A stretch of 64,000 nucleotides of DNA from Candidatus Bathyarchaeia archaeon (GCA_038867895.1 JAWBXL010000005.1:7340-71339); one strand, 5' to 3'; counted from the first letter of the stretch, positions 7,850 to 52,608 are shown. The notes: generated by a model not told the origin, from the letters alone. A program made the numbers and translations.

Positions 7850-9937
7850 TTATTGCCTCGCCTTTTGAAGGGCTAATTTAACTATCTCCGAGATATCCAT
7901 TATAATAAGATTATTTTCTAAGCCTTCAGTCTTAACAGCTTCTTCAAGCATAATCAGACATGATGGACAGGCTACAGCCAATATCCCTGCACCAGCATTG
8001 TAGGCCTCCTTAACCCTCATCCTATCAGGATTATATTCGCTATCAAGTAGCAGACCACAACCAAAACCAACATAGCAGTTTCCGCTTCCACCACCACAGC
8101 AGAGAGAGTTTTCCTTATTCCGCTCCAATTCGATGAGATGGATGCCCGGAATGGATCTCAGAATGTTTCTTGGAGCCTCATACTCGCCATTCCATCTGCC
8201 TAGGAAGCATGGATCATGATATGCTATTACCTCGTTGATCTTAGCATCAGCATCAAATTTTATCTTCCCATTCTCAATAAGGTGCCAGAGGAATTGTGTA
8301 TAATGCTCAACATCGAATTTACCGCCGAAATCGCCGTAAAAGTTTCTTATAACGTTATAGGAGTGAGGAGACAAAGTAATAATTTTCTTTACATCAAGGG
8401 CTTCAAAAATCTCTATATTTCGTCTAGCCATCTCTTCAAAGAGGCCGGTCTCGCCGATTTCATAGGCTTCGCTTCCTGAGCAGTTCTCTTTTTCGCCTAA
8501 AATGCCATATGAAATGCCAGATAAAAGTAAGATTTCAGCTAAGCTTTTAGCTGCCGCCTGCGCCCTCGGATGAAATGAGCCCATGTCACCTACATAGAAA
8601 AGGATTTCTATATTATTCTTAAATCGTGGAATATTATTTCCAGCCCATTCAGACCTTTTTGCGCGGGGTAATCCGAAGGGATTTCCATATTTATAAATGT
8701 TCTCCAGCATTTCTCCAACTTTTGAGGGCACTATTCCTCTCTCAATGCTTTTAGATCTTAATCTTCTCGATATTCCAGCGCTGTCCACTTTAACTGGACA
8801 TAGCTCCTTACAAGCGTTACAGAATAAACAGAACCAAGAAATTGTCTCAGCGATCTCCGGCTTCTCAGTTATCGCCGTCCATCCAACGCCCATCGGTCCA
8901 CCATAAACCTTTCCACCCCATATGTTACCACAGATACTCCATATTGGGCATGAGACTTGGCATCTCCCGCATTTAATGCAACGAAGCTGTTCCATTAAAA
9001 TTGGATCTTTAGAGGCTCTGATTCTTCCACCATCATAGAGTATTACATGAACCTCTCTAGCACCATGCACGCCATAAACCCTATGATATTCTATATCAGC
9101 AGTACTACTCACTCCTGAAATCACGTTTACATATGTTGGTGGATAGAGCCCAGCATAACCAGATTGAACCGTCACCTGTAAAAATGCGTCTCTAAAAGTT
9201 GGCACAATCTTCTCAACGCCCGCAACCACTATATAGATGGGCGGTAAAGTAACTATATTGTTTATATTACCCTCATTATGAACGAGGAAAATAGATCCTG
9301 TATCCGCGGCTATAGCATTTGCGCCGCTAATCCCAACATCAGCCTTGATAAACTTCTCTTTTAAGAAGTCTCTTAGGGTGGAAACAAGCTCCTCATGGGA
9401 TGCATCCCCACTAACAGTTAACCCCAAGCAAGGTTCAAGTAAACCAGCTATGTATTCTCTGCTTAGATGAAGCGCCGGGACTATAACGTGCATTGGCTTC
9501 CCTCTAGACATTTGTATTAAAAATTCACCTATGTCCGTCTCGTAAACCTCGTGACCCTTCTCAATAAGATGCTCACGTAGCATTATTTCCTCGGTTACCA
9601 TTGATTTAGCCTTCACGATTATCTTCTTTTTCTCACCAATAATTCTGTCAATTATCTCTAATGCCGAACTGCTGTTCTCAGCAAAATACGCATGCGCACC
9701 AGTAGATTTTATACTTTTAATCGTCTTATCAACATAGTATTCAAGATCTCCTAAAACCTTCTCTCTAACAGATTTTATATATTCAGCTGCCTCCATTAGC
9801 ATAGAATGATTTTTCAAGATATTATTTATAGAACGGAGAAAATTGTTTATGGATCTTCTTAGACCGATCTGGAGGGCAGCATCCTTCTGTGCTTTAGCCA
9901 TTTCGCCAGCAAGTTCCTCGATGTTCATTAATACCAC
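7850..9937 (-). CDS. LUD-domain/4Fe-4S protein fused to CCG domains (LutB/LldF + LutA/LldE-like lactate/hydroxyacid oxidation subunit)
   Basis: KAKSMVTEEI, ETDIGE, NEGN, GVHGAREVHV; CxxCxxCxxxCP twice; CCG-type YHDPC, CCGGG and ACPSC. Confidence 0.85.
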   Translation of the reverse strand: MVLMNIEELAGEMAKAQKDAALQIGLRRSINNFLRSINNILKNHSMLMEAAEYIKSVREKVLGDLEYYVDKTIKSIKSTGAHAYFAENSSSALEIIDRIIGEKKKIIVKAKSMVTEEIMLREHLIEKGHEVYETDIGEFLIQMSRGKPMHVIVPALHLSREYIAGLLEPCLGLTVSGDASHEELVSTLRDFLKEKFIKADVGISGANAIAADTGSIFLVHNEGNINNIVTLPPIYIVVAGVEKIVPTFRDAFLQVTVQSGYAGLYPPTYVNVISGVSSTADIEYHRVYGVHGAREVHVILYDGGRIRASKDPILMEQLRCIKCGRCQVSCPIWSICGNIWGGKVYGGPMGVGWTAITEKPEIAETISWFCLFCNACKELCPVKVDSAGISRRLRSKSIERGIVPSKVGEMLENIYKYGNPFGLPRAKRSEWAGNNIPRFKNNIEILFYVGDMGSFHPRAQAAAKSLAEILLLSGISYGILGEKENCSGSEAYEIGETGLFEEMARRNIEIFEALDVKKIITLSPHSYNVIRNFYGDFGGKFDVEHYTQFLWHLIENGKIKFDADAKINEVIAYHDPCFLGRWNGEYEAPRNILRSIPGIHLIELERNKENSLCCGGGSGNCYVGFGCGLLLDSEYNPDRMRVKEAYNAGAGILAVACPSCLIMLEEAVKTEGLENNLIIMDISEIVKLALQKARQ

Positions 9938-9968
9938 ACCAACTAGTGCATCATTATTTCAAGGTGGT

Positions 9969-11108
9969 TCATGCTGTCTCTTTAAGCACCTTAACCTTAA
10001 ATTCTACTCCAAATTTTTCTCCTTCATCTTTTATTTCCTTGAGAATATTCTTGTGAATTGGTATCCCTATCCTTTTTCTCGTCTCCATTGTTAGCCAAGC
10101 CTTCTCCCCAGGTATCCATATCTCAGCATCCTCCGAAATTTTCCTTAAGCCCTTAATATACTCCTTATATTTCTCGATCCTTTCTAAGAAGGCGTCCAGA
10201 AATGATATTTTATCTACATCTATCACTATCATGAAGTGCCCGACGTTCGCCCGCTCCTTATCAGTTGTATGCTTAACAAACACGCCGTAATTGGCTCCAG
10301 TTAATACACCGCAGAGCACATCAACGACAAGGGCTAAGCCCGCGCCTTTGTGCCCACTAAATTCCTCACCAAGCCCACCTAATGGCAACAGTGAACATTT
10401 CCTAGCTAAAACTTCCTTCGGGTCTTCTACAATTTTTCCCTCAGGAGAAAGAGCCCAGCCAGGCGGTATTTTCTTGTCCTCCTTCGCGTAGACCTCTATC
10501 TTCCCAATTGGGACAACACTTGTGGCGGCATCAAAAAGCACTGGAGGTGGATTCTTTGTTGGAAACCCGACGGCTATTGGATTCGTGCCTATGTTTCTGC
10601 CAACTGTATGCGTGTAGGATACTAGTGCCTCAGAATTCGTCATCACCATGCCAATCATATTTCTTTTAACAGCTTGCAGGGCATAGTAACCAGCTATGCC
10701 AAAGTGGTGGCTATTTCTGATACCAACGGCTGAAACGCCTATTTTTTTAGCCTTCTCAATAGCCATTTCCATGGCATTATACGCAACAACCTGTCCTAAT
10801 CCGGATCCACCGTCGATCAATGCTGTTGAAGCTGTTTCCTTTACAACATTCACTTCGGTTTTTGGGTTTACTGAGCCAACCTGGATGCCAACAGTATACC
10901 TCCTAAGTCTTTGGACGCCATGACTCTCAATCCCCATGAGATCCGCAGTCACAAGAACATCTGCAACGATCCCCGCGTGCTCCCTCGGGACCTTCAGGGA
11001 GGAGAGAACTTCAGCGACGTAATTTTTTAGGGATGCCCATTCGACTCTAACAAACTCATCAGGTGGAATTGGAGGCGTCTTTTCATATATTCTCAACATG
11101 CCGAACAC
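9969..11108 (-). CDS. Ldh_2 family malate/L-lactate/L-sulfolactate-type dehydrogenase (ComC/AllD-like); start may be the ATG at 11099
   Basis: ADLMGIESHG, NSHHFGIAGYYA, GTNPIA, DAATS, GHKGAGL, PGE motifs. Confidence 0.9.
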   Translation of the reverse strand: MFGMLRIYEKTPPIPPDEFVRVEWASLKNYVAEVLSSLKVPREHAGIVADVLVTADLMGIESHGVQRLRRYTVGIQVGSVNPKTEVNVVKETASTALIDGGSGLGQVVAYNAMEMAIEKAKKIGVSAVGIRNSHHFGIAGYYALQAVKRNMIGMVMTNSEALVSYTHTVGRNIGTNPIAVGFPTKNPPPVLFDAATSVVPIGKIEVYAKEDKKIPPGWALSPEGKIVEDPKEVLARKCSLLPLGGLGEEFSGHKGAGLALVVDVLCGVLTGANYGVFVKHTTDKERANVGHFMIVIDVDKISFLDAFLERIEKYKEYIKGLRKISEDAEIWIPGEKAWLTMETRKRIGIPIHKNILKEIKDEGEKFGVEFKVKVLKETA

Positions 11109-11373: not shown

Positions 11374-12246
11374 GTGAAAAATATGATGAGGTTAAAGGAT
11401 CAAGTTGCCATTATAACTGGTTCTTCACGTGGAATAGGTAGAGCTGCTGCAATACTTTTCGCGCAGGAGGGGGCGGACGTAGTCGTAAACTATGTTAAAG
11501 ATGCGGACGCCGCTCAGAAGGTTGTTGAAAAGATAAAAGAAATGGGTAGAAGAGCAATTGCTGTTCAAGCAGATGTTGGAAATTTAAAGGACCATGAAAA
11601 ATTGGTAAATGCTGCCCTAAATGAGTTCGGGAGAATAGATATATTGTACCATAATGCTGCCATTCACTATATTTGTAAAACTCTTGATGATGTAACAGAA
11701 GATGTCTGGGATTGGACTTATAATGTTATTGTTAAGGGGCCCTTCTTTCTCACAAAGCGCGTAGTTCCCCATATGTTAAAGCAGGGAAGAGGCAATATCC
11801 TCTTTACTTTAACTGGCGGAATCTATAGTGTGCGGCCATCAGATTGGCATTACCTTAGTGCAAAAGCAGCTGTAGCGATGCTCGTTAGGGTTCTCGCGGG
11901 AACCCTTGCGCCTGAAATAAGAGTGAATGCCGTAATGCCAGGAACTGTTATGACGGATATGTTTAGACATCACCCGCCGGAATCCTGGGAGGCCTTAGCA
12001 AAGTCTGCACCTATGGGGAGAATGGCAACCCCAATGGATGTTGCTAGGGCAGCATTATGGCTTGTATCGCCTGAGGCAGAATATATCACAGGTTGCGTTA
12101 TTCCAGTTGATGGAGGAATGACTGCGTGCGCATCAAAAGAAACTATGAAACAGATACTCGAAAGATTATTGCCTGGCTTATCACTATATGATTCTAAGAT
12201 GTACGCACGTTGGCTTAAGGAGATAACTGCGGGACTAGAATTTTAA
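11374..12246 (+). CDS. Classical short-chain dehydrogenase/reductase (SDR)
   Basis: TGSSRGIG, HNAA, YLSAK (YxxxK), IRVNAVMPG, VDGG. Confidence 0.93.
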   Translation: MKNMMRLKDQVAIITGSSRGIGRAAAILFAQEGADVVVNYVKDADAAQKVVEKIKEMGRRAIAVQADVGNLKDHEKLVNAALNEFGRIDILYHNAAIHYICKTLDDVTEDVWDWTYNVIVKGPFFLTKRVVPHMLKQGRGNILFTLTGGIYSVRPSDWHYLSAKAAVAMLVRVLAGTLAPEIRVNAVMPGTVMTDMFRHHPPESWEALAKSAPMGRMATPMDVARAALWLVSPEAEYITGCVIPVDGGMTACASKETMKQILERLLPGLSLYDSKMYARWLKEITAGLEF

Positions 12247-12264: not shown

Positions 12265-13545
12265 TTAAGTTTCTATCACCTCTATATTTAATCTCCTACA
12301 GAAAATCTTTAATTTTTCTCGAAGATCCCCTAATGCCATAACATAATGATTGCCCATAGCGTACTCTATAAATTTCTTTGGATCGCCATTTAATCTTAAA
12401 ATCACCTTAACCTGTTCCTCTATATCGCAATCCTCTATTTTTCCGAAAGATAAATGTAATCTATTAGCCTTCTTTCCCAAAAGTCTTACCAGAGTAGCTG
12501 GTTCCCCTTTTGGGATTTTAGGTCTACATTCTGCTAGAGTAGGTGGTCTATCCCCTATTTCCTTCTGGGTTTTCCCAGAAATTACAACTTCTCCACCTTT
12601 GGCTAATGAGCTTGCCGCTGCACAATGAGCTAATGTTAAAAGGTTACCCTCTAACGAGTAAATATCTGTAATCCAAGCTGAAAAACCACTTAAATACTTG
12701 AGGAATAAGGCAGATAAAAGTGATAAAACGTCACATTCACAGCCTATCGCATAAGAATCTTCTACAAAGCCAAGACATGGATTTATCTGAAGCTCCGCTT
12801 CAATATCTGGATGGCAGCCTATCGCAATCGCATCAAGGTTATATCTATTTAAAATCTCCTTTATTGCTTTATGAACAATTATCCCTTTAGTCAATGAATT
12901 TTTATCTGTTTTTAGGATAACCTTTTCTTGCGAAATCTGCTTCATATCTATCTCTTCACACCTAAGAGACCCCAAAATATTAGTGAATTCGAAGCGTGAA
13001 AGTTGCCTTAATTTAACACCAAACCTCTTTTCGATGGCTTCGATATCGTAGAGGGAAGCTAACATATAATGTGGCAAATTCCCTAATATGCCAATACGGG
13101 CCATTGAAAGTCTATGGATGGCAAAAGCTACCCTCGCTAAAACCGCAATTTTCCCAACAATATCTTTGTCTCCAGGTCTCCCATGCAGCAGCGTTGCCCA
13201 AAATCCTCTTTCTATTAAAGCGCCATAGGCGCTAGCAGAGGTGGGAAAAGAGAAACGCCAAGGTAATGACCAGATTACAATTGGTAATTTTAAGTAATCT
13301 GCCACAGCCACCTGCAAGTGAGCAGTTGCTCCATGAAGACACAGTAAAAGTGCAAGGTCATAATCCTCTTTATTGATAACATCTCCTAATTGATATACTT
13401 GCAATTCATTTACAACAGGGCTAAGTCTTTTTATCTTTACATCTAATCCTTCAAAGGCATTTTCAACAGAATCTATATCGCGTTTAAAACTCTCATCGAC
13501 AACTCTGCCTATTGGCACCAACAAAATACTTGGACGATCACTCAA
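12265..13545 (-). CDS. L-fucose/L-arabinose isomerase-like protein
   Basis: CECD metal motif, LAHC, C-terminal GNHY; length and organisation fit the FucI/AraA-related family. Confidence 0.7.
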   Translation of the reverse strand: MSDRPSILLVPIGRVVDESFKRDIDSVENAFEGLDVKIKRLSPVVNELQVYQLGDVINKEDYDLALLLCLHGATAHLQVAVADYLKLPIVIWSLPWRFSFPTSASAYGALIERGFWATLLHGRPGDKDIVGKIAVLARVAFAIHRLSMARIGILGNLPHYMLASLYDIEAIEKRFGVKLRQLSRFEFTNILGSLRCEEIDMKQISQEKVILKTDKNSLTKGIIVHKAIKEILNRYNLDAIAIGCHPDIEAELQINPCLGFVEDSYAIGCECDVLSLLSALFLKYLSGFSAWITDIYSLEGNLLTLAHCAAASSLAKGGEVVISGKTQKEIGDRPPTLAECRPKIPKGEPATLVRLLGKKANRLHLSFGKIEDCDIEEQVKVILRLNGDPKKFIEYAMGNHYVMALGDLREKLKIFCRRLNIEVIET

Positions 13546-13671: not shown

Positions 13672-16278
13672 TCATTTCCCTAAGAGGAATTTCGGTATCT
13701 CCTCAGGCTTCGCTTTATATACTCTGCAGAGTAAAGCTCTGCAATACCATGCTCCCGTTTTTTCGTCTAGGGTCGAAGGATCATCTTCTGTTAAGACATT
13801 TGCATTAGATATTAAAGCTCCTCCAAGCCACGGTTCTTCGGTCGGAAGCTCTGGATACCACCATGAGGCTCCTATATTTACTACTTGCGGGTGAATATGT
13901 GGTCCTACTCTAGCCCTCTGCAATATTCTACCTCGGCGTGTTTCAATCCAAACCCAGTCACCATCCACTATACCAAGTTTCCTAGCGGTCTCATAATGTA
14001 TGTCACAGCGTGGCCAAGGATTCTGTTCTCTGAAACCCATACCCCACTGCCTGTATTCGGAGTGAAACATCGGCCGGAATCTTCCACCAGTAGTAAGTAT
14101 GAGAGGATACTCCTTAGCTAATTCGGGAGTTCTCACAGGACTCTCAAAGGGCTCCTCATGTTCAGGAAGAGGATCGTATCCTAAATCTTCCAGTATCGAA
14201 CTCCATATCTCTGCTCTCCTACTTGGAGTAGTGAATCCTCGTGGTTTACCAGTTTTTGGATCAATTAAAGCCCATGGTTTATCCTCCTCTGGGAGATAAC
14301 CCGGGGTGTTTGAGGTAAGCAATCCCATGCGAATAGCATCCTCAAATTTTATTCCAGCTCGGCTCAGTCTATATTCTATTGCCTCTTTATTGTTCTTCCA
14401 TGGGAAATACTCTCCAAAACCAAGGCGTATGGCAAGCCCACGGAAGAGCTCATAATCGCTGTGACGATCTCCCATAGGTTTAACTGCATTTTCTCCTACA
14501 ACAACAGCTTCTTGGTAATCCTCCCAATTGCAACAGTACGGAACTTCTAGACCCTTCGCTGCGGCTGGCAAAACGTAATCTGCAAGGGCTGCAGTAGGCG
14601 TCATAAAGTAGTCTTGAACAACACATAGCTCTAAGTTGGAACTCTTTAAGGCTTTGATCACTAACTTAGTATTTGGTGCCCACATGATAGGGTTTCCGCT
14701 CCATATAATGAGCGCTTTTATCGGATATGGTTTTCCAGTGAGTATTGCCCGCCAGATAAGTGGCATGGATACTGTTAATGTGTGCCCACCAGAGTTTTGA
14801 GGAATCCCCCATACTTTCTGGTAATATTTATTGTATAAGTCAAAGGCTGCCCATGACATTACCTTATATTGATCCATACCTATTTGCTTAAGTTTTGTTT
14901 CGGGTTTTATAAACTCTTGCCCCTCGAGCTCAGACTCTCTTACCACAAGTTTACCATTAATAACTGGCCCCGGACGGGCTCTAAGAAGAGGCCAAATGCC
15001 GCCTTTCACACCATAATTCCCTGTTATTAAGTGGATTATAACCATAGCTATATGATTATCTGAGGCGTTTTTTCCAGCTTGGTAAAGAGATACTCCGGCC
15101 CCTATACCGCCAGGCCTTCTAGTCCAGAACATTCTCGCAGTTTCAATTATTTTTTCAGCTGGTATCCATGTTATTTCTTCAACATACTCAGGCGTATATT
15201 TGCTTACGCGCTCCCACAGCATATCCCAAACAGTTTTGCATTCTACTTCTTTACCATCAACTAATTTAACCTTAAATGTTCCAGAAAGAGATGGTTTGGC
15301 GTCTTGTGGCTGAAATATCATTTCCTCAGAAATCCATATGGCCGGAGCATTACGCATAGTATCCCATACTACAAAGTTTTCACGCGAACCTCCTTGTCTT
15401 ATATCGCTCTCCCTTAATAGTTTTCTGACATCTGTACGAACTAAAAATGGCGCATTAGTCCAGTTCAGCACAAAATCCTTATCAAAAAGTCCCTCCTTCA
15501 TTAAAATATGGATCCAGCCTAAAAATAAAGCACAATCAGTGCCCGGTCTTATTTGTAACCACATGTCACAACATCTGGCAGTTTCTGTTAGTCTAGGATC
15601 AACGCACACCGCGTAAATATTTTCCCTATTAAGCGTAAAAGCGGCCCAAAGCGGTGGAAATGCTTCTTTTATATCCGTCCCAACAAGAACAACATATCTA
15701 GTTTCACTGCTCATTTCCGGCCATTCACGTGAAAAGGCACCAGCCATGCACTGTTCAACAGCTGTTCCTGGGTGGTGACATATTGTGCTTGGGTCACCAA
15801 GGTTAAGGGGATTACCAAACAAATACGCAAAGCGAGAACGGGCCCAGAACGTATCTGAACGCATGGTCCCTTCAATGAAGGCAACACATTCAGGACCATA
15901 TTTATCCCTCAGCTCCTTTAGTTTCTCCGCTATTTCATCTAAAGCTTGCTCATAGGATATGCGTTGCCACTTTCCCTCGCCTCTTTCGCCTACCCTCTTA
16001 AGAGCATACATTAACTGATCTGGATGATAAAGCCATCTTGCCGGGAAATCAGGAATTGTCGCCCGATCATAGCATACAAACTTTTCTTGTGAAAAAGGAT
16101 CTGGATAGACAACCCAAAGCTTCGAAATAGGATGTTCTGGGTTTCCTTCCACCTTTACTATTTTCCCGGTCTTCTTGTCTATGTAGGCAAGAAGCCCACA
16201 GCCCGCGAAGCATCCTCCGGCACCATTGTTACATATAATTCGCTTAACTTCAAGTTCCTCACTCATAAGTATCCCCAT
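13672..16278 (-). CDS. Mo/W-bisPGD oxidoreductase, Cys-ligated (acetylene hydratase/catechol dehydroxylase-like branch), cytoplasmic
   Basis: N-terminal C-x6-C-x3-C...C Fe-S motif, RGEGKWQRIS, STICHH (putative Mo-Cys), IRPGTDCA, FMTPTAALADYVLPAA, FHSE C-terminal domain; no Tat RR signal. Confidence 0.88.
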   Translation of the reverse strand: MGILMSEELEVKRIICNNGAGGCFAGCGLLAYIDKKTGKIVKVEGNPEHPISKLWVVYPDPFSQEKFVCYDRATIPDFPARWLYHPDQLMYALKRVGERGEGKWQRISYEQALDEIAEKLKELRDKYGPECVAFIEGTMRSDTFWARSRFAYLFGNPLNLGDPSTICHHPGTAVEQCMAGAFSREWPEMSSETRYVVLVGTDIKEAFPPLWAAFTLNRENIYAVCVDPRLTETARCCDMWLQIRPGTDCALFLGWIHILMKEGLFDKDFVLNWTNAPFLVRTDVRKLLRESDIRQGGSRENFVVWDTMRNAPAIWISEEMIFQPQDAKPSLSGTFKVKLVDGKEVECKTVWDMLWERVSKYTPEYVEEITWIPAEKIIETARMFWTRRPGGIGAGVSLYQAGKNASDNHIAMVIIHLITGNYGVKGGIWPLLRARPGPVINGKLVVRESELEGQEFIKPETKLKQIGMDQYKVMSWAAFDLYNKYYQKVWGIPQNSGGHTLTVSMPLIWRAILTGKPYPIKALIIWSGNPIMWAPNTKLVIKALKSSNLELCVVQDYFMTPTAALADYVLPAAAKGLEVPYCCNWEDYQEAVVVGENAVKPMGDRHSDYELFRGLAIRLGFGEYFPWKNNKEAIEYRLSRAGIKFEDAIRMGLLTSNTPGYLPEEDKPWALIDPKTGKPRGFTTPSRRAEIWSSILEDLGYDPLPEHEEPFESPVRTPELAKEYPLILTTGGRFRPMFHSEYRQWGMGFREQNPWPRCDIHYETARKLGIVDGDWVWIETRRGRILQRARVGPHIHPQVVNIGASWWYPELPTEEPWLGGALISNANVLTEDDPSTLDEKTGAWYCRALLCRVYKAKPEEIPKFLLGK

Positions 16279-16370
16279 TTTTACAATTAAAGATTTTTTT
16301 ATATGCCTTTTTCTATTTAAAACTTTCTAATAATTCCATCGTTGTTCTTTGGATGTGAAACTCTTATTAT

Positions 16371-17216
16371 TTAGAGGGTGATGTCACCCAGGTTCACGTC
16401 CCTTTCAGTTGTTATTATACCAATAACTTTTTTCTTGTAGCCTTCCTTCTCTATTTCAAGCAGGTATTTATGCCTCCATTCTAGATTTTTAAGCCAGAAG
16501 TCTCCAAACTCGTCGGTGTACACTTCATATTTTCTGCCAGTATACAAGTCTATCGCTGTAACTTTAGCGTTTTCAATAACCTCTTTCTTCGCCGAGTTTA
16601 TTATGGTGCCCGCTATAAATGGCTTTGGCAAATTCAGATAATATACTCGAGGTTTTGTTCCATATTCTGGGTGGAGCACCTCAGTCTTTTCTAGGAGCAC
16701 CTTTAGTTCTTCTTCATCCCCAAAGATTATAGCATTTCTTTGGCATGCATCTACACATCTTGGGACACCACGCTTATAAAGTGGGTCAGCGCCATCTAAA
16801 AGATGAGCGCAAAACGTGCATTTCTGTGCTATGCCAAGCTTCTCGTTAAAGTAGATTGCTCCATATGGACAAGAATCATAACATAATGGTTTATCAACGT
16901 CTCTGCATCCATTACATCTATCCGGCCTTATTAATACTATTCCGTCAGATCTCTTCACTATTGCTCCGATTCTACACGCCCTGATGCAGGGCGGATTATC
17001 GCAGTGCATGCAATTCATGGGTATGTAGGTGACCTTTACTTTTGGAATAGTTCCCCGCTCCACTTCCTTAACCCATCTCCATGCAGCCCCTAAATCTGGT
17101 TGTGGCTTAGCGTACGGAGACCAGTCGTTATCTACATGCTCATCCTTACAAGCAATTTGACAAACATAACAGCCTACGCATTCAGCAACGTTAATAATCA
17201 TAACTTTCTTTCCCAT
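16371..17216 (-). CDS. 4Fe-4S dicluster protein with C-terminal beta-sandwich, pyrogallol transhydroxylase beta subunit (BthL)-like
   Basis: Four Cys groups; CKDEH...W...ERG, AQKCTFCAHLLD, GTKPRVYY, TDEFGDF and LGDITL match the recalled BthL architecture. Confidence 0.85.
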   Translation of the reverse strand: MGKKVMIINVAECVGCYVCQIACKDEHVDNDWSPYAKPQPDLGAAWRWVKEVERGTIPKVKVTYIPMNCMHCDNPPCIRACRIGAIVKRSDGIVLIRPDRCNGCRDVDKPLCYDSCPYGAIYFNEKLGIAQKCTFCAHLLDGADPLYKRGVPRCVDACQRNAIIFGDEEELKVLLEKTEVLHPEYGTKPRVYYLNLPKPFIAGTIINSAKKEVIENAKVTAIDLYTGRKYEVYTDEFGDFWLKNLEWRHKYLLEIEKEGYKKKVIGIITTERDVNLGDITL

Positions 17217-17218
17217 AT

Positions 17219-19801
17219 CTACTCACCATATTGCCCTTTTTTCTTTAATAATTTTTCTAATTCAGATCGGTCAACTTTTCTTATATCTGCTAAGAAGCCC
17301 GTTACAACCATCTCAGGGATCCTTACAGGCTCTCCAGCCTTATACTTCTCATATGGTGATGGACAAATAAGGTTTATTGCTCCTCCTCTATCAACCTTGT
17401 CTTCTAAGGATATTATGTCTAGATGTGAGCCATGCTGTATTAGTAGAGCCCCTGGGATTATTCTCTCAGTTACATAGGCTCCGAAGAGAACTGCCCCTCT
17501 ATCGTTATAGACCATAGTTATATCACCATGCTTAATACCCTTTTTAGCAGCATCTACTGGATGGATCCATACTGGCTCATAGAAATATCCATCCGGTCCC
17601 ATTATCTTACATGAGGGCAGCATCCATAACCATGGGATGTCATCGCCTATAGTATGATGTCTCCATCGTGGATGCGCAGAAACAACTATAAATGGGTATC
17701 TTTTCGATCTTAGGCTGCCACTAGATTCTTCATGTTCAACCCACTTAGCTAGCGGAGGTCTTTCTTTATCACCAGGAGCATATTTTTGAATCCTTTGAGA
17801 GACAAACTCTATTTTTCCTGTGGGAGTTGTTAAACCGCTTCCCTTCTTGTAGAACCAAGCCATGCCACCCTCATGTTCCTCAAAGCCCATGATTTCCTTC
17901 TTTATTTTAATCCATTCTTCCCAAGTTGGAGCGCTATAAATATAAAGTTTCTTCTTCTTAAAGTCTTCCCAAGAAATCTCTCTTGAAATCATTGTTTCTT
18001 CATATGCTTTCTTCATCAATTCCTCTGGAGGCGGGAAAGCGTCGGCAACACCAAGTCTTTCGGCCAACATCCTGTATATTTCATAGTCACTTTTTGATTC
18101 TCCAAGAGGCGCTACAGCTTTATCTTGATAAGCAATGCCATACATATCACTATGATGGATATTTATGAGATCCTCATGCTCAAATATTGTTTGCGCTGGC
18201 AATATTATATCCGCGAAAAGAGCATCATTCTCTAACCAAGGAGTTACCGATACAATAAGCTCGATCTTTGGACTTCTAAAGGCTTCAATCATCCTATACC
18301 CGTGATTCCAGCATTGAGTAAGACAGGAGTTTTCATTCCATATCATCTTAATGCCAGGATGGTTGTCGCGTGGGGGATATCTAAATAGCTTGAATTGATC
18401 GTCTCCAGAACAGACTATTGTATTTTTTCCATACCAATATACTGGTGGATTAAGTATCGCTTCAGCCACTAATGTTTTTATTATAGGTAATGCTTTATCC
18501 AGCGGTGGAGATGAAACATATCCAAGACATACCGGTAAAGATGGTATTCCCTTACCAAACTGTGCGCTTTCTGGATATTGGGGAACTGGCGGTAATTTTT
18601 CGAAGGCAAGCCCGGGCAGGAATCTAACAACCCTTAAAAATTGTCTTCCTGGTTTCCCAAGACCCTGCATGGCTAGCAAGTATGCCTCAATTCTCGCTGT
18701 CATATGCGCCAAGAAGCCTCTTTGCTTTGGACCACCATAGTGAACTGCTAAAGATGTTCTCTTTTTCGCCCATGTCCTAGCCAAAGCCCTAATGACCCAC
18801 GAAGAAACACCAGTTATATTCTCAGCCCATTCAGGAGTCTTCGGTATACCATCTTCTTCTCCTAAAACATACCTCTTAAACTCCTCAAAACCTACGCAAT
18901 GAGTCTCTATATATTCTTTATCATATGTATCCTCCGTAATCCAGACGTAAGCTATAGCTAAATAAAGCGCCGCATCAGTATTAGGTTTAATTGGAACCCA
19001 CTTATCAGCATGGATTGCTTCAGCATAGTTTAAATCTGGGGATATACCTATTATTTTTATTCCAGCTTTCTTTAAAAAGTCGCAGAAAAACGTGCCTATC
19101 TGGCCCGCGAAACCTGGAACTGTCGTTTCAGGATCACAACCACTAAATATTACCATTTCGCAATTTTCTAAAATATCGTCCCATATAGCATCTTGGCTTG
19201 GCTCCCCCACCGAAGAGTCAAAACCCCAAACATGCTTCGCCCCATAATAATACCCTTCCCAGCTATCCGGATTTCTTACAACAATTGTCCAACCACTTCC
19301 TAAAGCATTAAAGAGATGATGAGCCCACGAATGTGTTGTTTGAATATATCCTGATTGACCATGCCCATCAGCCATAACTAATATTGGTTCCGTAGATCCA
19401 TATGTTTGCCTAATCCTGTCTATCTCCTTTACAATTATATCTAGCGCTTCATCCCAAGAAATCCTAACATAACCACTTTTACCTCTATTCTGTGGATTTC
19501 TGTTTTCTGGATTCCAGTCTATCCTCTTAAGCGGATAAAGTACTCTGGTTCGTGAGTTTAATCGCTTTCTATGAGCGAAAGAAGGAGTCCATGGAACACA
19601 CTTTCTATTGGGCCTAGTAAAGACGCCCCTGCTGGTTCTTATCTCATAAACATTGACGTTTTCAGGTATTATAGAGGGGAGGCACCTGACTATCTTATTA
19701 TTCCTAACGTGCACCTCGATAGGTAATGCTGAACCAGCAACACCACAAAATCCGGAAGAAACATATACAATTTTTTCCGAGCTGTCAATAGGATTTTCCA
19801 A
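17219..19801 (-). CDS. Mo-bisPGD enzyme, pyrogallol-phloroglucinol transhydroxylase alpha subunit (AthL)-like
   Basis: NPDSWEG Ser-ligand motif, RNPQNRG, RISWDEA, MQGLGKPG, HPRW, VWIHPVDA, DRGAV; no N-terminal Fe-S motif; 2 bp from the BthL-like gene. Confidence 0.87.
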   Translation of the reverse strand: MENPIDSSEKIVYVSSGFCGVAGSALPIEVHVRNNKIVRCLPSIIPENVNVYEIRTSRGVFTRPNRKCVPWTPSFAHRKRLNSRTRVLYPLKRIDWNPENRNPQNRGKSGYVRISWDEALDIIVKEIDRIRQTYGSTEPILVMADGHGQSGYIQTTHSWAHHLFNALGSGWTIVVRNPDSWEGYYYGAKHVWGFDSSVGEPSQDAIWDDILENCEMVIFSGCDPETTVPGFAGQIGTFFCDFLKKAGIKIIGISPDLNYAEAIHADKWVPIKPNTDAALYLAIAYVWITEDTYDKEYIETHCVGFEEFKRYVLGEEDGIPKTPEWAENITGVSSWVIRALARTWAKKRTSLAVHYGGPKQRGFLAHMTARIEAYLLAMQGLGKPGRQFLRVVRFLPGLAFEKLPPVPQYPESAQFGKGIPSLPVCLGYVSSPPLDKALPIIKTLVAEAILNPPVYWYGKNTIVCSGDDQFKLFRYPPRDNHPGIKMIWNENSCLTQCWNHGYRMIEAFRSPKIELIVSVTPWLENDALFADIILPAQTIFEHEDLINIHHSDMYGIAYQDKAVAPLGESKSDYEIYRMLAERLGVADAFPPPEELMKKAYEETMISREISWEDFKKKKLYIYSAPTWEEWIKIKKEIMGFEEHEGGMAWFYKKGSGLTTPTGKIEFVSQRIQKYAPGDKERPPLAKWVEHEESSGSLRSKRYPFIVVSAHPRWRHHTIGDDIPWLWMLPSCKIMGPDGYFYEPVWIHPVDAAKKGIKHGDITMVYNDRGAVLFGAYVTERIIPGALLIQHGSHLDIISLEDKVDRGGAINLICPSPYEKYKAGEPVRIPEMVVTGFLADIRKVDRSELEKLLKKKGQYGE

Positions 19802-20032: not shown

Positions 20033-21139
20033 TTAAAAATCTATTAGATTTTTTGGATTTTCGAGAAAATACCTTATCTCTTGAAGGAAACGAACAGCAG
20101 GGACACCCTCTATAATTCGGTGGTCATATGTTAAAGCTAAGTAGACCATGGACCTAATTTTTATTTGATCATCTACAACAACTGGTCTCTTTTTTACGGC
20201 TCCAACACCAAGAATCGCGGCTTGAGGATAGTTAATTATTGGAGTATTGAAAAGAGCCCCAAACATGCCGACGTTTGTTATAGTGAAAGTGCCGTCAGCA
20301 ACATCATCAAAAGACAATTTTCCCTCTCTGGCTTTTTTAGCCAGAAGATCGATCGCTTCAGAGATTTGTTTCAAGCTCATCTTATCCGCTGCCTTTATAA
20401 CGGGAACAACTAGCCCCCTTTCTCCCGCATAGACAGCGACCCCTATATTATAATATTTTTTGACTATAATTTTGTCGTCTTCAAGGGAGGAATTGATGAT
20501 TGGATATTTCTTCAGGGCTTGAACAACGGCCTTTACAACAAATGCGGTAAAGTTTACGTCATGACCCTCTTTTTTCAGCTGTTCACGCAAACTTAACAGT
20601 TCCGTTACATCAGCTTCCGCAAATGTGGTGACATGAGCAACTGTGCGCATGCTCAATGACATAGCCTCAGCCATAGTTTTTCTCCAGCCCTCTAACGGAA
20701 TAATCTCCACATTCTCTGCCTTTTCAACTGGAGCTCCAATCTCCTCTTCTCTCGGGATAAAGGGAAGCAGATCTTTCTCAGTTATTATCCCGTCGGGTCC
20801 TGTGCCTCTTATCTTAGATAAATCTATCCCATATTTCTTCGCCAATCTTTTCGCTAAAGGCGAAGCTGCCACCTTCACTTTCTCTACAGCTAAAGTTTCT
20901 CGGGATATCTCCTCTTCTACTAAGGCTATAACTTCCCCAACTGGAACAATAGATCCTTCCTCCTTTAGAATCCTTAATGTCCCTGAGACTGGAGACGTTA
21001 TTTCCGCCGTCGCCTTCGCCGTCTCTATTTCGGCAATAGTCTCTCCTCTTTCAACTTTTTCGCCATCTCTTTTTCTCCACCTTACAATAGTTGCTTCCCG
21101 CATAGTTGGATCCAACTTAGGAAGAACAACCTCCGCCAA
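20033..21139 (-). CDS. 2-oxoacid/acetoin dehydrogenase E2 dihydrolipoamide acyltransferase
   Basis: Lipoyl domain ETAKA, E3-binding ASPLAKRLA...GTGPDG, catalytic TYDHRIIEG. The ORF-track start lies near 21139. Confidence 0.93.
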   Translation of the reverse strand: MAEVVLPKLDPTMREATIVRWRKRDGEKVERGETIAEIETAKATAEITSPVSGTLRILKEEGSIVPVGEVIALVEEEISRETLAVEKVKVAASPLAKRLAKKYGIDLSKIRGTGPDGIITEKDLLPFIPREEEIGAPVEKAENVEIIPLEGWRKTMAEAMSLSMRTVAHVTTFAEADVTELLSLREQLKKEGHDVNFTAFVVKAVVQALKKYPIINSSLEDDKIIVKKYYNIGVAVYAGERGLVVPVIKAADKMSLKQISEAIDLLAKKAREGKLSFDDVADGTFTITNVGMFGALFNTPIINYPQAAILGVGAVKKRPVVVDDQIKIRSMVYLALTYDHRIIEGVPAVRFLQEIRYFLENPKNLIDF

Positions 21140-21149
21140 TGCTAATCCC

Positions 21150-23168
21150 TCACTTAGATATTCTTAGAACTGCTTCCATGATTTTATTCTCATCAGGAAT
21201 ATAAAATTTCTCTAAGGGAGGGCTAAATGGTACTGGAGTGAAAGGTGCACCTACTCTTACTATCGGAGCATCTAAGTAGCCCAGCGCTTTTTCCGCGATC
21301 AAGGCAGCAACCTCAGCTCCAAAGCCGCCTGTTACTGGCGCTTCATGCACGATAACAATTTTTCCAGTCTTCTTAACAGAGGATAGTATAGTATCTTCAT
21401 CTAATGGTAATAATGTTCTTGGATCAATAACCTCAACACTTATATTTCTCTTCTCTAAAATTTCAGCGGCCGCAAGCGCTTTATGAACCATTAATCCAGT
21501 AGCTATAATTGTGACGTCATCACCTTCTCTCTTAATATCAGCCTTTCCTAACGGAACCATATATTCACCTGTAGGTATTCTCCCTCTTAATCCATACATC
21601 ATTTTATGCTCAAAGAAGATAACGGGGTCATCATCTCTTATCGATGCTTTCAGTAGCCCCTTAGCATCATAAGGTGTGGAGGGCATGACTATTTTTAATC
21701 CAGGCACATTCAAGAACCATGCTTCAGGCGACTGACTATGATGTAAACCCATAGACGCGCCGGCGCCAAAAGGTGCTCTTATAACTATCGGAACCGAAGC
21801 CTTCCCGCCATAATTATACCTCATTTTCGCAGCAACATTAACTATCTGATCCATCGCTATAGTCAAGAAATCTGCAAACATTATCTCGGCAACAGGTCTC
21901 ATGCCGAGAAGGGCAGCTCCAACAGCCGCGCCAACAATTACTGATTCAGATATTGGTGTACCAATTACCCTATCTGGAAACTCATCGCATAATCCCTTTG
22001 TTGGCGGCCAGAGACCTCCGCGTGATGGCCCTATAGTGTCAGGGCCCAAATCTTCCCCTAAAAGAATTACGGATGGATCTCTTCTCATTTCTTCTTTAAG
22101 AGCTTCATTTAGCGCTTCGCCAAAACTTACTTCTTTAACAGCCCCCTTATAATGCTTTATATCTATATATTCCGCCTCCCTTAACAAATATTCTCCATAT
22201 ACATCCCTCAGCGCCTCCTCAGGTTCAGGGAATGAGCTCTCTTCCGCAAATCTAATAGCCTCATTTATCTCCAACTCAACTTGTTTCCTCAATTCATTTT
22301 CCATCTCCGGCGTCAATATCCCTTTCTCCAAGAGAAAGTTCCTATATCGGATCAATGGATCTTTTTTCATCCATGCTTCAATCTCTTCTTTTGGTCTTCT
22401 CTCCGGATATCCGGTTTCCGCGTGATCCCGTATTCTATATGTTTTACATTCAATCAGGGATGGCCCATAGCCGACACGCGCTTTTTCAACGGCTTTCTGG
22501 ACAGTCTCATGAACGGTAAGTACATCATTGCCATCAATGGTAAATCCATCAATTCCATAAGCTATAGCTCTATCCGCAAGGTTTTCAATAGGGCAATGAC
22601 TGCGATAAGGAGTCCACATAGCATACTGGTTATTTTCAATTATATATATTACTGGCAACTTTTTAACAGCCGCAAAGTTTAAAGCTTCATGGAAATCGCC
22701 TCGCTGCGTCGCTCCATCCCCCAAAAAACATAGAACCACGGAACTTCTCTTCTTTAGCTTACAATAAAGTGCGGCGCCCGTGGATAAACATAAATGCCCT
22801 CCAACTATACCAGTAGTCCCTATAATGCCACGCTCATTATCCCCCATATGATGAGTTGTCACTTTTCCTCTAGCAGGTCCCGTACTTTTTCCAAAGATTC
22901 CTGCCATTAATATTTTAGCTGGTACACGCATGAGTAATGCCGGCCTAGCTCTAAGCGACGGAACAATATAGTCATCGGATCTCAGTTTAAAGCATGCCCC
23001 AACATATATGGCTTCTTGACCAATATGCGAATGAGGTAGCTCCAGTATTCCCCCATGATTGGGCATTCCATAATATCTCTCAATCAGCTTTTCATCGAAA
23101 TTTCTTGCAAGCAACATATACTTGTAAATTTCTATTAGATCAGATTCAGTTAAACTCATTTTCATCAC
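21150..23168 (-). CDS. Fused E1 alpha/beta subunit of a TPP-dependent 2-oxoacid/acetoin dehydrogenase
   Basis: GQEA, GDGA...HEALN...ENN TPP motif, TYR..H; beta half with GED, TPISE, EIMFADF, HSQS. Confidence 0.93.
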   Translation of the reverse strand: MMKMSLTESDLIEIYKYMLLARNFDEKLIERYYGMPNHGGILELPHSHIGQEAIYVGACFKLRSDDYIVPSLRARPALLMRVPAKILMAGIFGKSTGPARGKVTTHHMGDNERGIIGTTGIVGGHLCLSTGAALYCKLKKRSSVVLCFLGDGATQRGDFHEALNFAAVKKLPVIYIIENNQYAMWTPYRSHCPIENLADRAIAYGIDGFTIDGNDVLTVHETVQKAVEKARVGYGPSLIECKTYRIRDHAETGYPERRPKEEIEAWMKKDPLIRYRNFLLEKGILTPEMENELRKQVELEINEAIRFAEESSFPEPEEALRDVYGEYLLREAEYIDIKHYKGAVKEVSFGEALNEALKEEMRRDPSVILLGEDLGPDTIGPSRGGLWPPTKGLCDEFPDRVIGTPISESVIVGAAVGAALLGMRPVAEIMFADFLTIAMDQIVNVAAKMRYNYGGKASVPIVIRAPFGAGASMGLHHSQSPEAWFLNVPGLKIVMPSTPYDAKGLLKASIRDDDPVIFFEHKMMYGLRGRIPTGEYMVPLGKADIKREGDDVTIIATGLMVHKALAAAEILEKRNISVEVIDPRTLLPLDEDTILSSVKKTGKIVIVHEAPVTGGFGAEVAALIAEKALGYLDAPIVRVGAPFTPVPFSPPLEKFYIPDENKIMEAVLRISK

Positions 23169-25579: not shown

Positions 25580-26302
25580 ATGGTCATATTGAAGTGTAAA
25601 GATCTGGTCAAACGCTTCGGTGGAATACGGGCTTTATCAAATCTAACATTTGAAGTTAATGATGACGAGATTTTTGGCATTATTGGTCCAAACGGGTCTG
25701 GAAAAACAACCCTTTTTAATGTTATAACAGGCGTTTATCGACCGGATGCAGGAAGCATCGAATATAAAGGTCGTTCTATTGTGGGGTTGTCTCCTCATGA
25801 GATTTCTAGAATGGGAATTATTAGAGCATATCAGATACCTCGTCCATTCACGAGACTTACCATATTAGAAAATTGTGTTGTGGCAGCACTCTCTACTCAA
25901 AAGATAAGCTATAATGAAGCGGTTAAATATAGTCTAGAAGCATTAGAGCTGCTGAAATTAGGAGATTTAATAAATGTTCCCGCCGGCTCTTTACTTCCCT
26001 TTCAACTTAAAAGACTTGAGATGGCAAGGGCTCTGGCTTGCAGGCCAAAACTTCTTCTTTTAGATGAACCAGCAGCTGGGATGCGAAAAGAAGAGATCAG
26101 CTATTTAGCAGAACTCATTGATAAGATATTCAATGAGGGAACCAAAATAATTTTGGTGGAGCATAGAATGGAGCTTATTACGCGAGTAGCCAAGAGGGTC
26201 ATGGTTATGTATCGTGGCACAAAATTGTTTGAGGGAGAACCAAAAGAAGTGTTAAGCGCTCCAGAAGTCATAGAAGCATATTTGGGAGAGGGTATTAAAT
26301 GA
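25580..26302 (+). CDS. HAAT/Liv-type ABC transporter ATPase (LivG-like)
   Basis: GPNGSGKT, LLLDEPAAG, VEH, EAYLG. Confidence 0.93.
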   Translation: MVILKCKDLVKRFGGIRALSNLTFEVNDDEIFGIIGPNGSGKTTLFNVITGVYRPDAGSIEYKGRSIVGLSPHEISRMGIIRAYQIPRPFTRLTILENCVVAALSTQKISYNEAVKYSLEALELLKLGDLINVPAGSLLPFQLKRLEMARALACRPKLLLLDEPAAGMRKEEISYLAELIDKIFNEGTKIILVEHRMELITRVAKRVMVMYRGTKLFEGEPKEVLSAPEVIEAYLGEGIK

Positions 26303-27024
26303 AAAATTCGAATCCGCTTTTGAAGGTAGATAATATTGATGTTTCTTATGGGCGTATAGATGTTCTTTGGGATATTTCCATGGAAATAAGGGAGGGAACA
26401 GTTGTCGCTTTAGTGGGAATGAATGGGGCGGGAAAATCAACTCTAGTTAAGACTATAACCGGTCTTCTTCGCCCAAAGAAGGGCGCTATCTATTTTGAGG
26501 ATAAAAGAATAGACGGTCTTGATCCCTGGCGCATCGCCGAGCTTGGTATAATTCAGGTGCCTGAGGGACGAAGACTCTTTACTAGAATGACTGTTAAAGA
26601 AAACCTGCTTATGGGCTGTTACCTTAAAGAGAGAAGAAAAAAAGCTGCTCAAAAGCTTAAAGAAATCTACCAGCTATTTCCAATATTAGCCGAAAGGGAG
26701 AAGCAGGAAGCTGGAACTTTAAGCGGAGGAGAACAGCAAATGCTCGCTATAGCAAGAGCCTTAATGGCGGAGCCTAAACTATTAATATTTGATGAGGTAA
26801 CATTAGGCTTAGCACCAAAGGTTAGAGAGGATATATACAGAAAGCTCGATGAGATAAAGCGTTTAGGAGTAACGATTCTCCTTATAGATGAGAATGTTCA
26901 AAGGAGTCTCGAGCTCAGCGATTACGCATATGTTCTAGAATCAGGCCGAATCACTTTACATGGAGAAACAAAAGAGCTGCTTAAAAATAAAGATATGATG
27001 ATAAAATTTTATTTTGGCATTTAA
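26299..27024 (+). CDS. HAAT/Liv-type ABC transporter ATPase (LivF-like)
   Basis: GMNGAGKS, VPEGRRLF, LSGGEQQMLA; overlaps the upstream gene via ATGA. Confidence 0.93.
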   Translation: MKNSNPLLKVDNIDVSYGRIDVLWDISMEIREGTVVALVGMNGAGKSTLVKTITGLLRPKKGAIYFEDKRIDGLDPWRIAELGIIQVPEGRRLFTRMTVKENLLMGCYLKERRKKAAQKLKEIYQLFPILAEREKQEAGTLSGGEQQMLAIARALMAEPKLLIFDEVTLGLAPKVREDIYRKLDEIKRLGVTILLIDENVQRSLELSDYAYVLESGRITLHGETKELLKNKDMMIKFYFGI

Positions 27025-27335
27025 TGAAGGAAATATTATTTACTACTTTTCCTTTTGGCACCTTTCAAAAGACAAAAGATGTTGATGAAATTATGCTCTT
27101 ACTCTGAGGGAGAGGGCTATTCACGATAAGCAATTTTTTATGTCAAATTTAAGCATTTACTCAGCAATAATATCATCAACAAAGAACACGCAAAACTTCC
27201 TCTAAACCTAATACACTTATGGAAAGGACAATTTTAGAGATATTTTTAATTATGAAGAGATCTACTATGGGTCAATAAGGATTTTAGAGGAAAAGAGAGA
27301 AAATGAAAAATATAGAGACTGAACTTAATAAAATC

Positions 27336-29075: not shown

Positions 29076-29476
29076 CTTTAAATCACCAGATAAAACATAG
29101 ATTGAGAAAAGTGCATATTAGCCTTTTGATTTTCTCTTTATTTCGATTTGGGAAGCCAAAGGTTTATGATAGGCGTTGGCATTTAATTAAGCGTTACATT
29201 ACGGGCACGTTTGGCAGAATGATAACTTTTATATGGATTAGACATTTCTCTTAGAATTCTTCTTAACCTTAAAACCATTTCCCCGTTAGAGACTACAATC
29301 TTAGCTCTGACCACCAGCCTTTAAGGACTAAGATTCCAGAAAAAGGGATTCTCAATTAAGAGAGAAATCTTATTCATGGAGGGATCCTAAAAACTGGATT
29401 GGAAGAAGGGCTTAAAGTGAGCATCTGGGTTCATTATCATCTTCGTAATGGATCGGCAAGCAGTCCATAAACTATT

Positions 29477-30031: not shown

Positions 30032-30136
30032 AACCCAAACAAAAACTATTGATAACCTGCATGTTCAAAACCTAATTTTTCAATTTAGTGAACAACAATT
30101 AATACTAAAAAATTAAAAAAAGGTGATTTGTGGAGC

Positions 30137-52580: not shown

Positions 52581-52608
52581 GGCTACTCACATCACATTTA
52601 TTCAGATT

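Follow-up and report, generated by a model that had tools for sequence, protein, structure and literature searches.

A 64,000-nucleotide stretch of the genome of a Candidatus Bathyarchaeia archaeon (GCA_038867895.1 JAWBXL010000005.1:7340-71339), referred to here as the window, encodes on its minus strand the two subunits, alpha and beta, of a candidate molybdoenzyme related to the pyrogallol–phloroglucinol transhydroxylase AthL/BthL of Pelobacter acidigallici. The window is part of one contig (C5) of a 1.7-Mb genome that is assembled in 81 contigs and 94.4% complete; contigs and loci are cited by our C and L numbers. A gap of 2 bases separates the stop codon of alpha from the start codon of beta (coordinates in Table 1). 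Alpha contains the Pfam domains PF00384 (molybdopterin oxidoreductase) and PF01568 (dinucleotide-binding), and a Pfam search of it returned no PF04879 domain. Its translation contains both MADGHGQSGY and VVRNPDSWEGYYYG, and the NPDSWEG motif and upstream DGHG histidine described in an initial annotation of this DNA are indeed encoded. Neither subunit hit any NCBIfam model above its curated cut-off. The highest scores of alpha were to bisC_fam (327.7; cut-off 1017.55), dmsA_ynfE (289.2; 777.7) and TorA (277.5; 909), which by these cut-offs places it outside the S-/N-oxide reductases DmsA, TorA and BisC.

The best solved relative of alpha is AthL (4v4c_A; 397.6 bits, E 9.4e-118, residues 25–823), followed by dimethyl sulfoxide (DMSO) and trimethylamine N-oxide (TMAO) reductases at no more than 223 bits. 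The best solved match of beta is BthL (4v4c_B; 163.9 bits, E 4.9e-47, residues 4–280), and the next is PsrB. Mapping the active site on the sequence of the P. acidigallici structure, a check proposed in the initial annotation, returned every equivalent: AthL His144, Asp174, Ser175 and Tyr404, which reportedly serve as catalytic or ligand residues, align with the identical residues His147, Asp179, Ser180 and Tyr409 of alpha. Among the 98 alphas that we compared, the columns for His147 and for Asn, Asp, Ser, Trp and Glu of N-P-D-S-W-E are invariant, and the Pro is kept in 96. The Tyr404 column holds tyrosine in all 10 AthL-type rows and in 20 of the 22 rows of the subclade to which alpha belongs. 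The surrounding pocket has diverged, as had been noted from the sequence: the positions of AthL Y152 and R153 are occupied by T155 and T156, and the AthL-type segments SSHH.WG and GG.GGACR are replaced by DGHGQSG and GGPKQRG. These pocket-adjacent differences run clade by clade, DGHGQ(S/T)G standing against SSHH.WG and GGPKIRGPYSH against GG.GGACR.

The beta subunit contains four complete Cys groups: CVGCYVCQIAC, CMHCDNPPCIRAC, CNGCRDVDKPLCYDSC, and CTFC followed after 17 residues by CVDAC. Pfam assigns PF13247 (4Fe-4S dicluster; 2e-21) and, at the C terminus, PF13620 (E 2.6e-11). All 16 cysteines align with those of PsrB (2vpw_B; E 1.2e-31), so the four quartets first read from the translation hold up against a solved structure. 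Beta is accordingly best described as a predicted ferredoxin-like electron-transfer subunit whose four Cys groups supply the ligands of four [4Fe-4S] clusters. When the betas are aligned, four cysteines of the query have no counterpart in BthL, namely the last of group II and the first three of group III, in agreement with the earlier statement that it carries fourth-cluster ligands missing from BthL. The alignments point to the group-III cluster, with Cys81, C101, C104 and C112 as putative ligands, as the one lost from BthL-type betas. The spacing of group III is C-x2-C-x7-C-x3-C, a 5-residue insert relative to BthL, PsrB, PcrB and NarH; long spacings (x7 to x9) occur in 40 of 121 beta sequences and x2 in 67, with 14 unparsed. 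The column of query Cys104 holds Trp in NarH and Ala in PcrB.

We take the group-III cluster to be FS4, which lies at the distal end of the wire, towards the membrane anchor, and is a [3Fe-4S] cluster in NarH, an assignment that reportedly goes back in part to work on DmsB C102. In membrane-bound relatives, the distal FS4 is the port to the redox partner. Because group III is read as FS4, the cluster that is absent from BthL and present in the query would be the exit or entry port of the wire.

To place this cluster count in the family, we scored 8,000 alpha candidates, 6,152 of which match at E ≤0.001. The best 120 all score at least 1046 bits and include Nitrososphaerota, Conexivisphaera calida and Alpha- and Betaproteobacteria at 53–59% identity. 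In a set of 121 betas, the query and its 120 best-matching homologues, the full 16 cysteines are kept by 107, while 11 lack Cys104 only and 3 lack group-III ligands. Scanning prokaryotic genomes, one for each species, gave at least 613 relatives, and the best 80 were fetched, yielding 78 loci, all from metagenome-assembled genomes (MAGs) and not a random sample. Open reading frames (ORFs) were called in these loci, in this genome and in three relatives, each alpha was paired with its downstream beta, and the 16 Cys columns were read. A FastTree phylogeny of 98 alphas was rooted with 2 outgroup rows, which are distantly related Mo enzymes from this archaeon. The tree includes neither AthL nor RhL; two alphas of the archaeon, C4b and C7, which score 1115.1 and 879.3 bits against AthL (4v4c_A), stand in for AthL.

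The tree separates an AthL-type clade of 10 rows (support 99) from a sister clade of 88 rows that holds the query (support 100). Every beta seen in the AthL-type clade has the three-cluster pattern (8 of 8; 2 rows have no beta); on the query's side of the split, not one of 61 betas seen does. There, 52 betas keep 16 cysteines, 6 keep 15 and 3 are cut by contig ends, and no beta was found for the remaining 27 rows. The query's subclade comprises 23 rows, from MAGs of Bathyarchaeia, Nitrososphaerales, Methanomethylicota, Myxococcota and Alphaproteobacteria. Across the rows sampled, only the AthL-type clade has lost the group-III cluster. Because the three-cluster state is limited to that clade, four clusters appear to be the family norm, and their reduction to three would mark the redox-neutral transhydroxylase clade. 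A four-cluster beta, presented initially as a distinguishing feature of this pair, is therefore the rule in its clade (107 of 121 close betas; 52 of 61 on the tree). Alpha, in turn, is predicted to be the Ser-ligated, bis(molybdopterin guanine dinucleotide) (bis-MGD) Mo/W catalytic subunit of an AthL-family enzyme from this four-cluster sister clade.

Five of the six 15-Cys betas lack group III Cys2, as do NarH and PcrB, and one lacks group II Cys3. In the five (L041, L048, L053, L061 and L086), Cys2 is replaced by His, Arg or Asn. These betas may carry a [3Fe-4S] cluster at this site, because the same position is Trp in NarH and Ala in PcrB. No entry named resorcinol hydroxylase or AthL was present among the listed best 120 matches to alpha, to beta or to the C7 alpha, the last set scoring at least 1280 bits throughout.

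The same genome encodes eight AthL-family alphas (C5, C4a, C36, C68, C33, C63, C4b and C7) and six BthL-family betas, which sort into two AthL-type pairs and six pairs or single alphas of the query's type. Four of these betas (C5, C36, C4a and C68) carry the full set of 16 cysteines, and the other two (C7 and C4b) lack Cys 8–11, as does BthL. The C4b and C7 pairs are likely the true transhydroxylase counterparts of this archaeon. As their alphas resemble AthL much more than the query does and are accompanied by BthL-like betas, the query pair would be of a different type. The initial description of an archaeal transhydroxylase-like pair therefore stands as regards likeness, at 398 bits to AthL, and falls as regards a special transhydroxylase: the pair is a paralogue from the sister clade. 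These data also bear on the idea that the query is one more redox-neutral pyrogallol–phloroglucinol transhydroxylase isoenzyme whose fourth cluster is a harmless ancestral leftover. In favour of this idea, no solved structure matches alpha better than AthL does, alpha retains the four active-site residues (His, Asp, Ser and Tyr), and the three clusters of BthL have no known catalytic role. We nevertheless consider this very unlikely: the two far closer counterparts are encoded in the same genome, the clades are split with supports of 99 and 100, the pocket differences described above are clade-wide, and the retention of 16 cysteines by most close beta homologues argues for selection on the fourth cluster.

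Several side observations concern these paralogues. On C63 (2286–5795, minus strand; L013), a 1,169-residue AthL-family alpha carries an N-terminally fused NarJ/TorD-like (Nitrate_red_del) chaperone domain, and separate NarJ/TorD-like chaperone genes adjoin the C4a pair and also occur in L038 and L040. About 17 bis-MGD-type genes are present in the genome, seen as 18 ORFs that match alpha. A Mo-enzyme gene at C7:3478–6143 (minus strand) is read as two ORFs of 737 and 151 aa with one in-frame TGA between them, which could be a selenocysteine codon or a break.

The enzyme is predicted to be cytoplasmic and soluble, because the N terminus of alpha (first 100 residues read) contains neither a twin-arginine (RR) motif nor the CxxCxxxC motif of an FS0 cluster. 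An NrfD-type anchor (PF03916) was not found in the 94.4%-complete genome, other anchor families lying outside the search, and none of the 78 loci revealed a recurrent third gene beside alpha and beta. The most frequent other neighbours were DctP (12), DctM (10), a 296-aa protein (9), DctQ (7), short-chain dehydrogenase/reductase (SDR) proteins (6) and an IclR regulator (6). With no such anchor and no recurring third gene, the redox partner would be soluble or encoded elsewhere. Proteins with a CCG domain (HdrD-like) are possible partners and offer a lead only: the genome has about 16 such genes, 5 of them within ~7 kb of AthL-family or acetylene-hydratase-like genes.

The pair lies in a co-directional run that reads E1 (alpha–beta fusion), E2, alpha, beta, an acetylene-hydratase-like enzyme and an isomerase-like protein, with an SDR gene following on the other strand (Table 1).

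Table 1. Features of the window and related loci (window positions unless a contig is named).
Feature	Position	Strand	Details
Alpha subunit	17219-19801	minus	860 aa, TTG start
NPDSWEG motif, residues 177-183	19253-19273	minus	Asp179 and putative Mo ligand Ser180
His147 (His of DGHG)	19361-19363	minus	AthL His144 equivalent by alignment
Tyr409 in VPQYPES	18575-18577	minus	AthL Tyr404 equivalent by alignment
Beta subunit	16371-17216	minus	281 aa
Cys81 of beta	16974-16976	minus	Fourth Cys of group II; goes with first three group-III Cys
Cys group III of beta (C101, C104, C112, C116)	16869-16916	minus	From alignments to BthL, PsrB, PcrB, NarH
CarboxypepD_reg / immunoglobulin (Ig)-like domain of beta, C-terminal, residues 201-274	16395-16616	minus	PF13620; compare BthL domain III
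Acetylene-hydratase-like Mo/W enzyme	13672-16278	minus	868 aa; 92 nt downstream of beta
Acetylene-hydratase-like paralogues	C33:3406-5973; C8:6386-8929; C44:4399-6957
L-fucose/L-arabinose-isomerase-like protein	12265-13545	minus	426 aa; last gene of co-directional run
SDR-family oxidoreductase	11374-12246	plus	Pfam; PDB matches to FabG-like SDRs
Fusion of LUD, 4Fe-4S and two CCG domains (LutB/LutA-like)	within 7850-11108; CCG gene 7850-9937	minus	695 aa; adjoins Ldh_2-family dehydrogenase
Fused E1 alpha-beta and E2 of a 2-oxoacid (acetoin-type) dehydrogenase complex	20033-23168	minus	Pfam; directly upstream of alpha
Liv-type ATP-binding cassette (ABC) uptake system	25580-33553	mixed	Unrelated genes interspersed
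Liv-type ABC, two ATPases	25580-27024	plus
Liv-type ABC, binding protein	30137-31426	minus
Liv-type ABC, two permeases	31755-33553	plus
UbiD-family decarboxylase	37935-39356		Divergent from FAD_binding_4 oxidoreductase (36071-39356 region)
Lipoate-protein ligase	39767-40510		Follows UbiD-family gene
PmbA/TldD-type peptidase, two overlapping ORFs	45899-47270	minus	342 + 117 aa; third domain split
Molybdenum cofactor genes (MoaB/Mog-like, MoaC, radical-SAM possibly MoaA)	51607-54344
C4b AthL-type pair	C4:69444-72875	plus	Three-cluster beta; 297-aa polyferredoxin follows pair
C7 AthL-type pair	C7:19742-23131	minus	Three-cluster beta

The Mo enzyme noted earlier beside the pair is present, and its identity can now be added: it matches acetylene hydratase (2e7z_A) at 334.4 bits, its STICHH cysteine aligns with the metal-ligand Cys, and it has a Cys motif of its own near the N terminus. 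The genome encodes four such close paralogues, which have the N-terminal motif C-(H/N)-x-G-x-G-G-C-x3-C-G-(L/F)-L-A-Y in common. A peptidase M24 (creatinase/prolidase-like) gene recurs near acetylene-hydratase-like loci, on C33, in the window (40600–41913) and in L040. The isomerase-like protein is encoded by a single-copy gene, scores 61.9 bits against the SftI NCBIfam model (cut-off 700) and resembles arabinose/fucose isomerase clusters at 0.97 by atlas features; it gave no Pfam and no PDB hit. The E1/E2 genes were tried as part of the system and rejected: the 231-nt gap between E2 and alpha contains T-runs just past the E2 stop codon and TATA-like boxes on the alpha side, and E1/E2 are absent from the orthologous locus of a sister species (G002) and from all 78 loci. 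They are probably a separate transcription unit.

The identity of the neighbour and its conserved linkage bear on whether the two enzymes form a redox-coupled pair, in which alpha–beta would hydroxylate a polyphenol with water and pass two electrons through its wire to the acetylene-hydratase-like enzyme, which would dehydroxylate. Such coupling was given as an example in the initial annotation; the two enzymes would jointly move a hydroxyl group and need neither an outside electron acceptor nor a co-substrate. According to a passage in PMC7028382, the closest relatives of the gut-bacterial catechol dehydroxylases (Dadh, Cldh) are acetylene hydratase, and by this analogy a dehydroxylase role for the neighbour is plausible. 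The gene order alpha, beta, acetylene-hydratase-like enzyme, with gaps of 2 and 92 nt, would suit such coupling, as would the locus in G002, where orthologues of alpha (73%), beta (74%), the acetylene-hydratase-like enzyme (77%), the isomerase-like protein (72%), the SDR (88%) and ABC genes remain together. That locus is rearranged on both strands, however, so that alpha–beta and the acetylene-hydratase-like gene lie on opposite strands with Liv-type transporter genes between them. On C33, a second acetylene-hydratase-like gene lies 6 kb from an alpha that has no beta, again with a Liv-type ABC system between them. The other two of the four paralogues (C8 and C44) are not near AthL-family genes. 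Among 40 relatives, six have AthL-family genes and four of these six also have acetylene-hydratase-like genes, which were found in none of the other 34; these genomes are kin from one genus, not independent cases. Beyond them, an acetylene-hydratase-like gene lies within the ~6-kb flanks in only 5 of the 78 loci from other genomes, and the 92-nt gap, which has no long T-run, contains a TATA-like TTTAAATA box that permits separate transcription. On balance, we regard redox coupling between the two enzymes as quite unlikely.

The locus is real and widespread: an 8.9-kb stretch recurs with zero differences in hot-spring metagenome contigs from three further studies (runs X4, X5 and X7). In one metatranscriptome, assembled contigs include near-identical pieces on the isomerase-like gene, on the acetylene-hydratase-like gene and at positions 16273–16663, the last spanning the 3′ end of beta and the whole gap up to the acetylene-hydratase-like start. 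Such contigs show neither level nor strand and DNA carry-over is possible, so this is a weak hint of transcription, not proof, and for the coupled pair likewise a weak hint at most; stretches of alpha that lack cover in this run carry no information.

A variant of the same idea, in which alpha–beta and the acetylene-hydratase-like enzyme act as a split transhydroxylase, repositioning hydroxyls with the same two electrons, would dispense with the tetrahydroxybenzene co-substrate that AthL needs. In a related variant, four-cluster paralogues that adjoin AthL-type pairs might make this co-substrate for them. The setting for the latter is a recurrent one: an AthL-type pair lies directly beside a four-cluster-type pair in seven bacterial loci (L041, L050, L055, L068, L074, L075 and L091) and on C4 of this genome. 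The seven loci belong to Chloroflexota, Desulfobacterota and Actinomycetota MAGs. Because both pair types adjoin in these places, the arrangement suggests that they work in one pathway. Taken jointly, we give the split transhydroxylase and the co-substrate supply a slim chance.

Further genes of the window and genome concern the pathway setting. The UbiD family, represented in the window, includes gallate and hydroxyarylic acid decarboxylases. Of the phloroglucinol-pathway markers, the cyclase family has two matches in the genome, one of them on C4, and a search of the 94.4%-complete assembly returned no BKACE; this neither supports nor excludes the pathway. PMC10470551 gives an account of the phloroglucinol pathway, whose gene cluster it reports from Archaeoglobus. 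The UbiD-family gene and the cyclase-family gene on C4 speak for a phenolic substrate, as do the family to which the query belongs, the two AthL-type pairs and the places where both pair types adjoin. The molybdenum cofactor genes and the lipoate-protein ligase of the window are listed in Table 1; the split of the PmbA/TldD-type gene suggests a frameshift or an assembly error.

The substrate could also be non-aromatic, the enzyme then being an S-/N-oxide reductase of the DMSO/TMAO/BisC type or hydroxylating aliphatic, cyclitol or sugar-derived compounds. The top NCBIfam models (bisC_fam, dmsA_ynfE and TorA) and the next-best solved relatives, the DMSO/TMAO reductases, lean this way, the linked isomerase-like, SDR and Ldh_2 neighbours would fit, and proteobacterial members of the clade lie beside 2-hydroxyacid dehydrogenases and flavin adenine dinucleotide (FAD) proteins. 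Yet the NCBIfam scores all fall far under their cut-offs, the AthL match exceeds that of any S-/N-oxide reductase by ~175 bits, the NPDSWEG, His and Tyr signature is common to AthL-type proteins, and the genome context is rich in transhydroxylase-type genes. We judge a non-aromatic substrate unlikely, and a phenolic one possible.

Taking these lines together, we read the query pair, with a probability of roughly 0.58, as a cytoplasmic alpha–beta Mo (or W) bis-MGD net hydroxylase or dehydroxylase from a large, uncharacterised sister clade of AthL/BthL. The BthL of P. acidigallici holds three [4Fe-4S] clusters, and the AthL/BthL reaction proceeds without net redox change. Because the query's beta keeps the full four-cluster wire, the enzyme probably takes up or gives off electrons as it works, which a transhydroxylase does not. 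That a fuller wire could support net hydroxylation or dehydroxylation had been suggested from the sequence at the outset, and the complete set of cluster ligands indeed points to net electron flow. With the group-III cluster read as the distal FS4, the enzyme would carry out a net two-electron reaction, either a water-dependent hydroxylation or a reductive dehydroxylation, on a hydroxylated and probably aromatic substrate, which the neighbouring ABC transporter would bring in. Electrons would travel along Mo, FS1, FS2, FS3 and FS4, in either direction, and a soluble partner, for example a ferredoxin or a CCG protein of the HdrD type, would supply them or take them up. The enzyme would then be one module of an anaerobic polyphenol-type conversion toolkit of the archaeon.

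Several points weigh against this assignment. Cluster number and net redox may not be linked, since BthL keeps three clusters despite a redox-neutral reaction. The identification of group III with the distal FS4 is taken over from related enzymes, not computed here, and no redox partner was identified. Of the 88 rows in the four-cluster clade, only 23 have Tyr in the Tyr404 column and 48 have a gap there; with the Tyr404 equivalent absent from most of the clade, the chemistry may differ within it. The tree was built by a fast method and has long outgroup branches, and its loci are best-scoring, not random. As for the substrate, the two binding proteins checked gave weak PDB matches only, to urea and Leu/Ile/Val binders, with no aromatic-acid binder among them. 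The neighbours of proteobacterial members, which also include TctC and tripartite ATP-independent periplasmic (TRAP) transporters, are mixed and not clearly aromatic, and the co-linked isomerase-like and SDR genes would equally suit non-aromatic hydroxy compounds.

Apart from the transhydroxylase, no Mo enzyme is known to transfer hydroxyl groups from one phenol to another. Within our sample, losing the distal group-III cluster would be a derived mark of the redox-neutral transhydroxylase clade. The sister clade runs to thousands of proteins in Bathyarchaeia, Nitrososphaerota, Chloroflexota, Desulfobacterota, Actinomycetota and Alphaproteobacteria, and among the matches listed we identified no characterised member. 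Bathyarchaeia are abundant in sediments and hot springs and have been tied to lignin and polyphenol use; a literature search found no publication that connects them with transhydroxylase. Within 1.7 Mb, the eight AthL-family alphas, four acetylene-hydratase-like enzymes and other bis-MGD genes amount to a set of expressible candidates for oxygen-independent hydroxylation and dehydroxylation. If the query proves ordinary, it is one more paralogue of a known family. New here are the count of clusters in each clade, the identification of the one that was lost, the 15-Cys variants that resemble NarH, and the finding that linkage to an acetylene-hydratase-like gene is conserved.

The closest known system is AthL/BthL itself (PgtL, EC 1.97.1.2; PDB 4v4c, 4v4d and 4v4e), a cytoplasmic alpha–beta enzyme without FS0 in alpha, as predicted for the query. 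The NPDSWEG motif, with its Ser and Asp, and the His and Tyr positions are all kept, and both betas end in an Ig-like domain. The differences lie in the cysteines (12 in BthL, for three clusters; 16 in the query, for four), in the AthL pocket segments, in the 5-residue insert of group III and in the phylogeny, where the query falls in the sister clade of the AthL-type enzymes with a support of 100.

With the four-cluster proteins PsrB (2vpw_B), ArrB (6cz7_B), PcrB (4ydd_B), NarH (1q16_B) and DmsB, beta aligns in all four Cys groups, and the 15-Cys betas of its clade mirror the loss of group III Cys2 in NarH and PcrB. Unlike PsrB-, NarH- and DmsB-type systems, however, the query has no export signal in either subunit, no nearby anchor gene and no FS0 in the partner alpha, and its beta has an extra Ig-like C-terminal domain. 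The acetylene-hydratase-like neighbour differs from acetylene hydratase in having His instead of Ile after the ligand Cys, an insert at about residues 275–352, and an N-terminal motif C-x6-C-x3-C...C in place of the C-x2-C-D-x2-C of acetylene hydratase.

Resorcinol hydroxylase (RhLS/RehLS) of Aromatoleum (Azoarcus) anaerobium is membrane-associated and comes from a nitrate reducer. Its gene cluster also holds the pyruvate-dehydrogenase-like ring-cleavage complex bqdLMS, which the E1/E2 genes adjacent to alpha would echo. The E1/E2 genes, however, appear to be a separate unit and are absent from the orthologous G002 locus. The resorcinol pathway genes rehLS, btdLS and bqdLMS are named in a passage of PMC10084136, with RhLS/RehLS under GenBank EF078692.1, and a passage in PMC10100899 treats PgtL and RhL as Ser-ligated relatives that both perform hydroxylations. 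RhLS/RehLS belongs to the same family as the query and adds a hydroxyl group to a phenol in a net reaction that does not depend on oxygen; we propose a reaction of this kind here.

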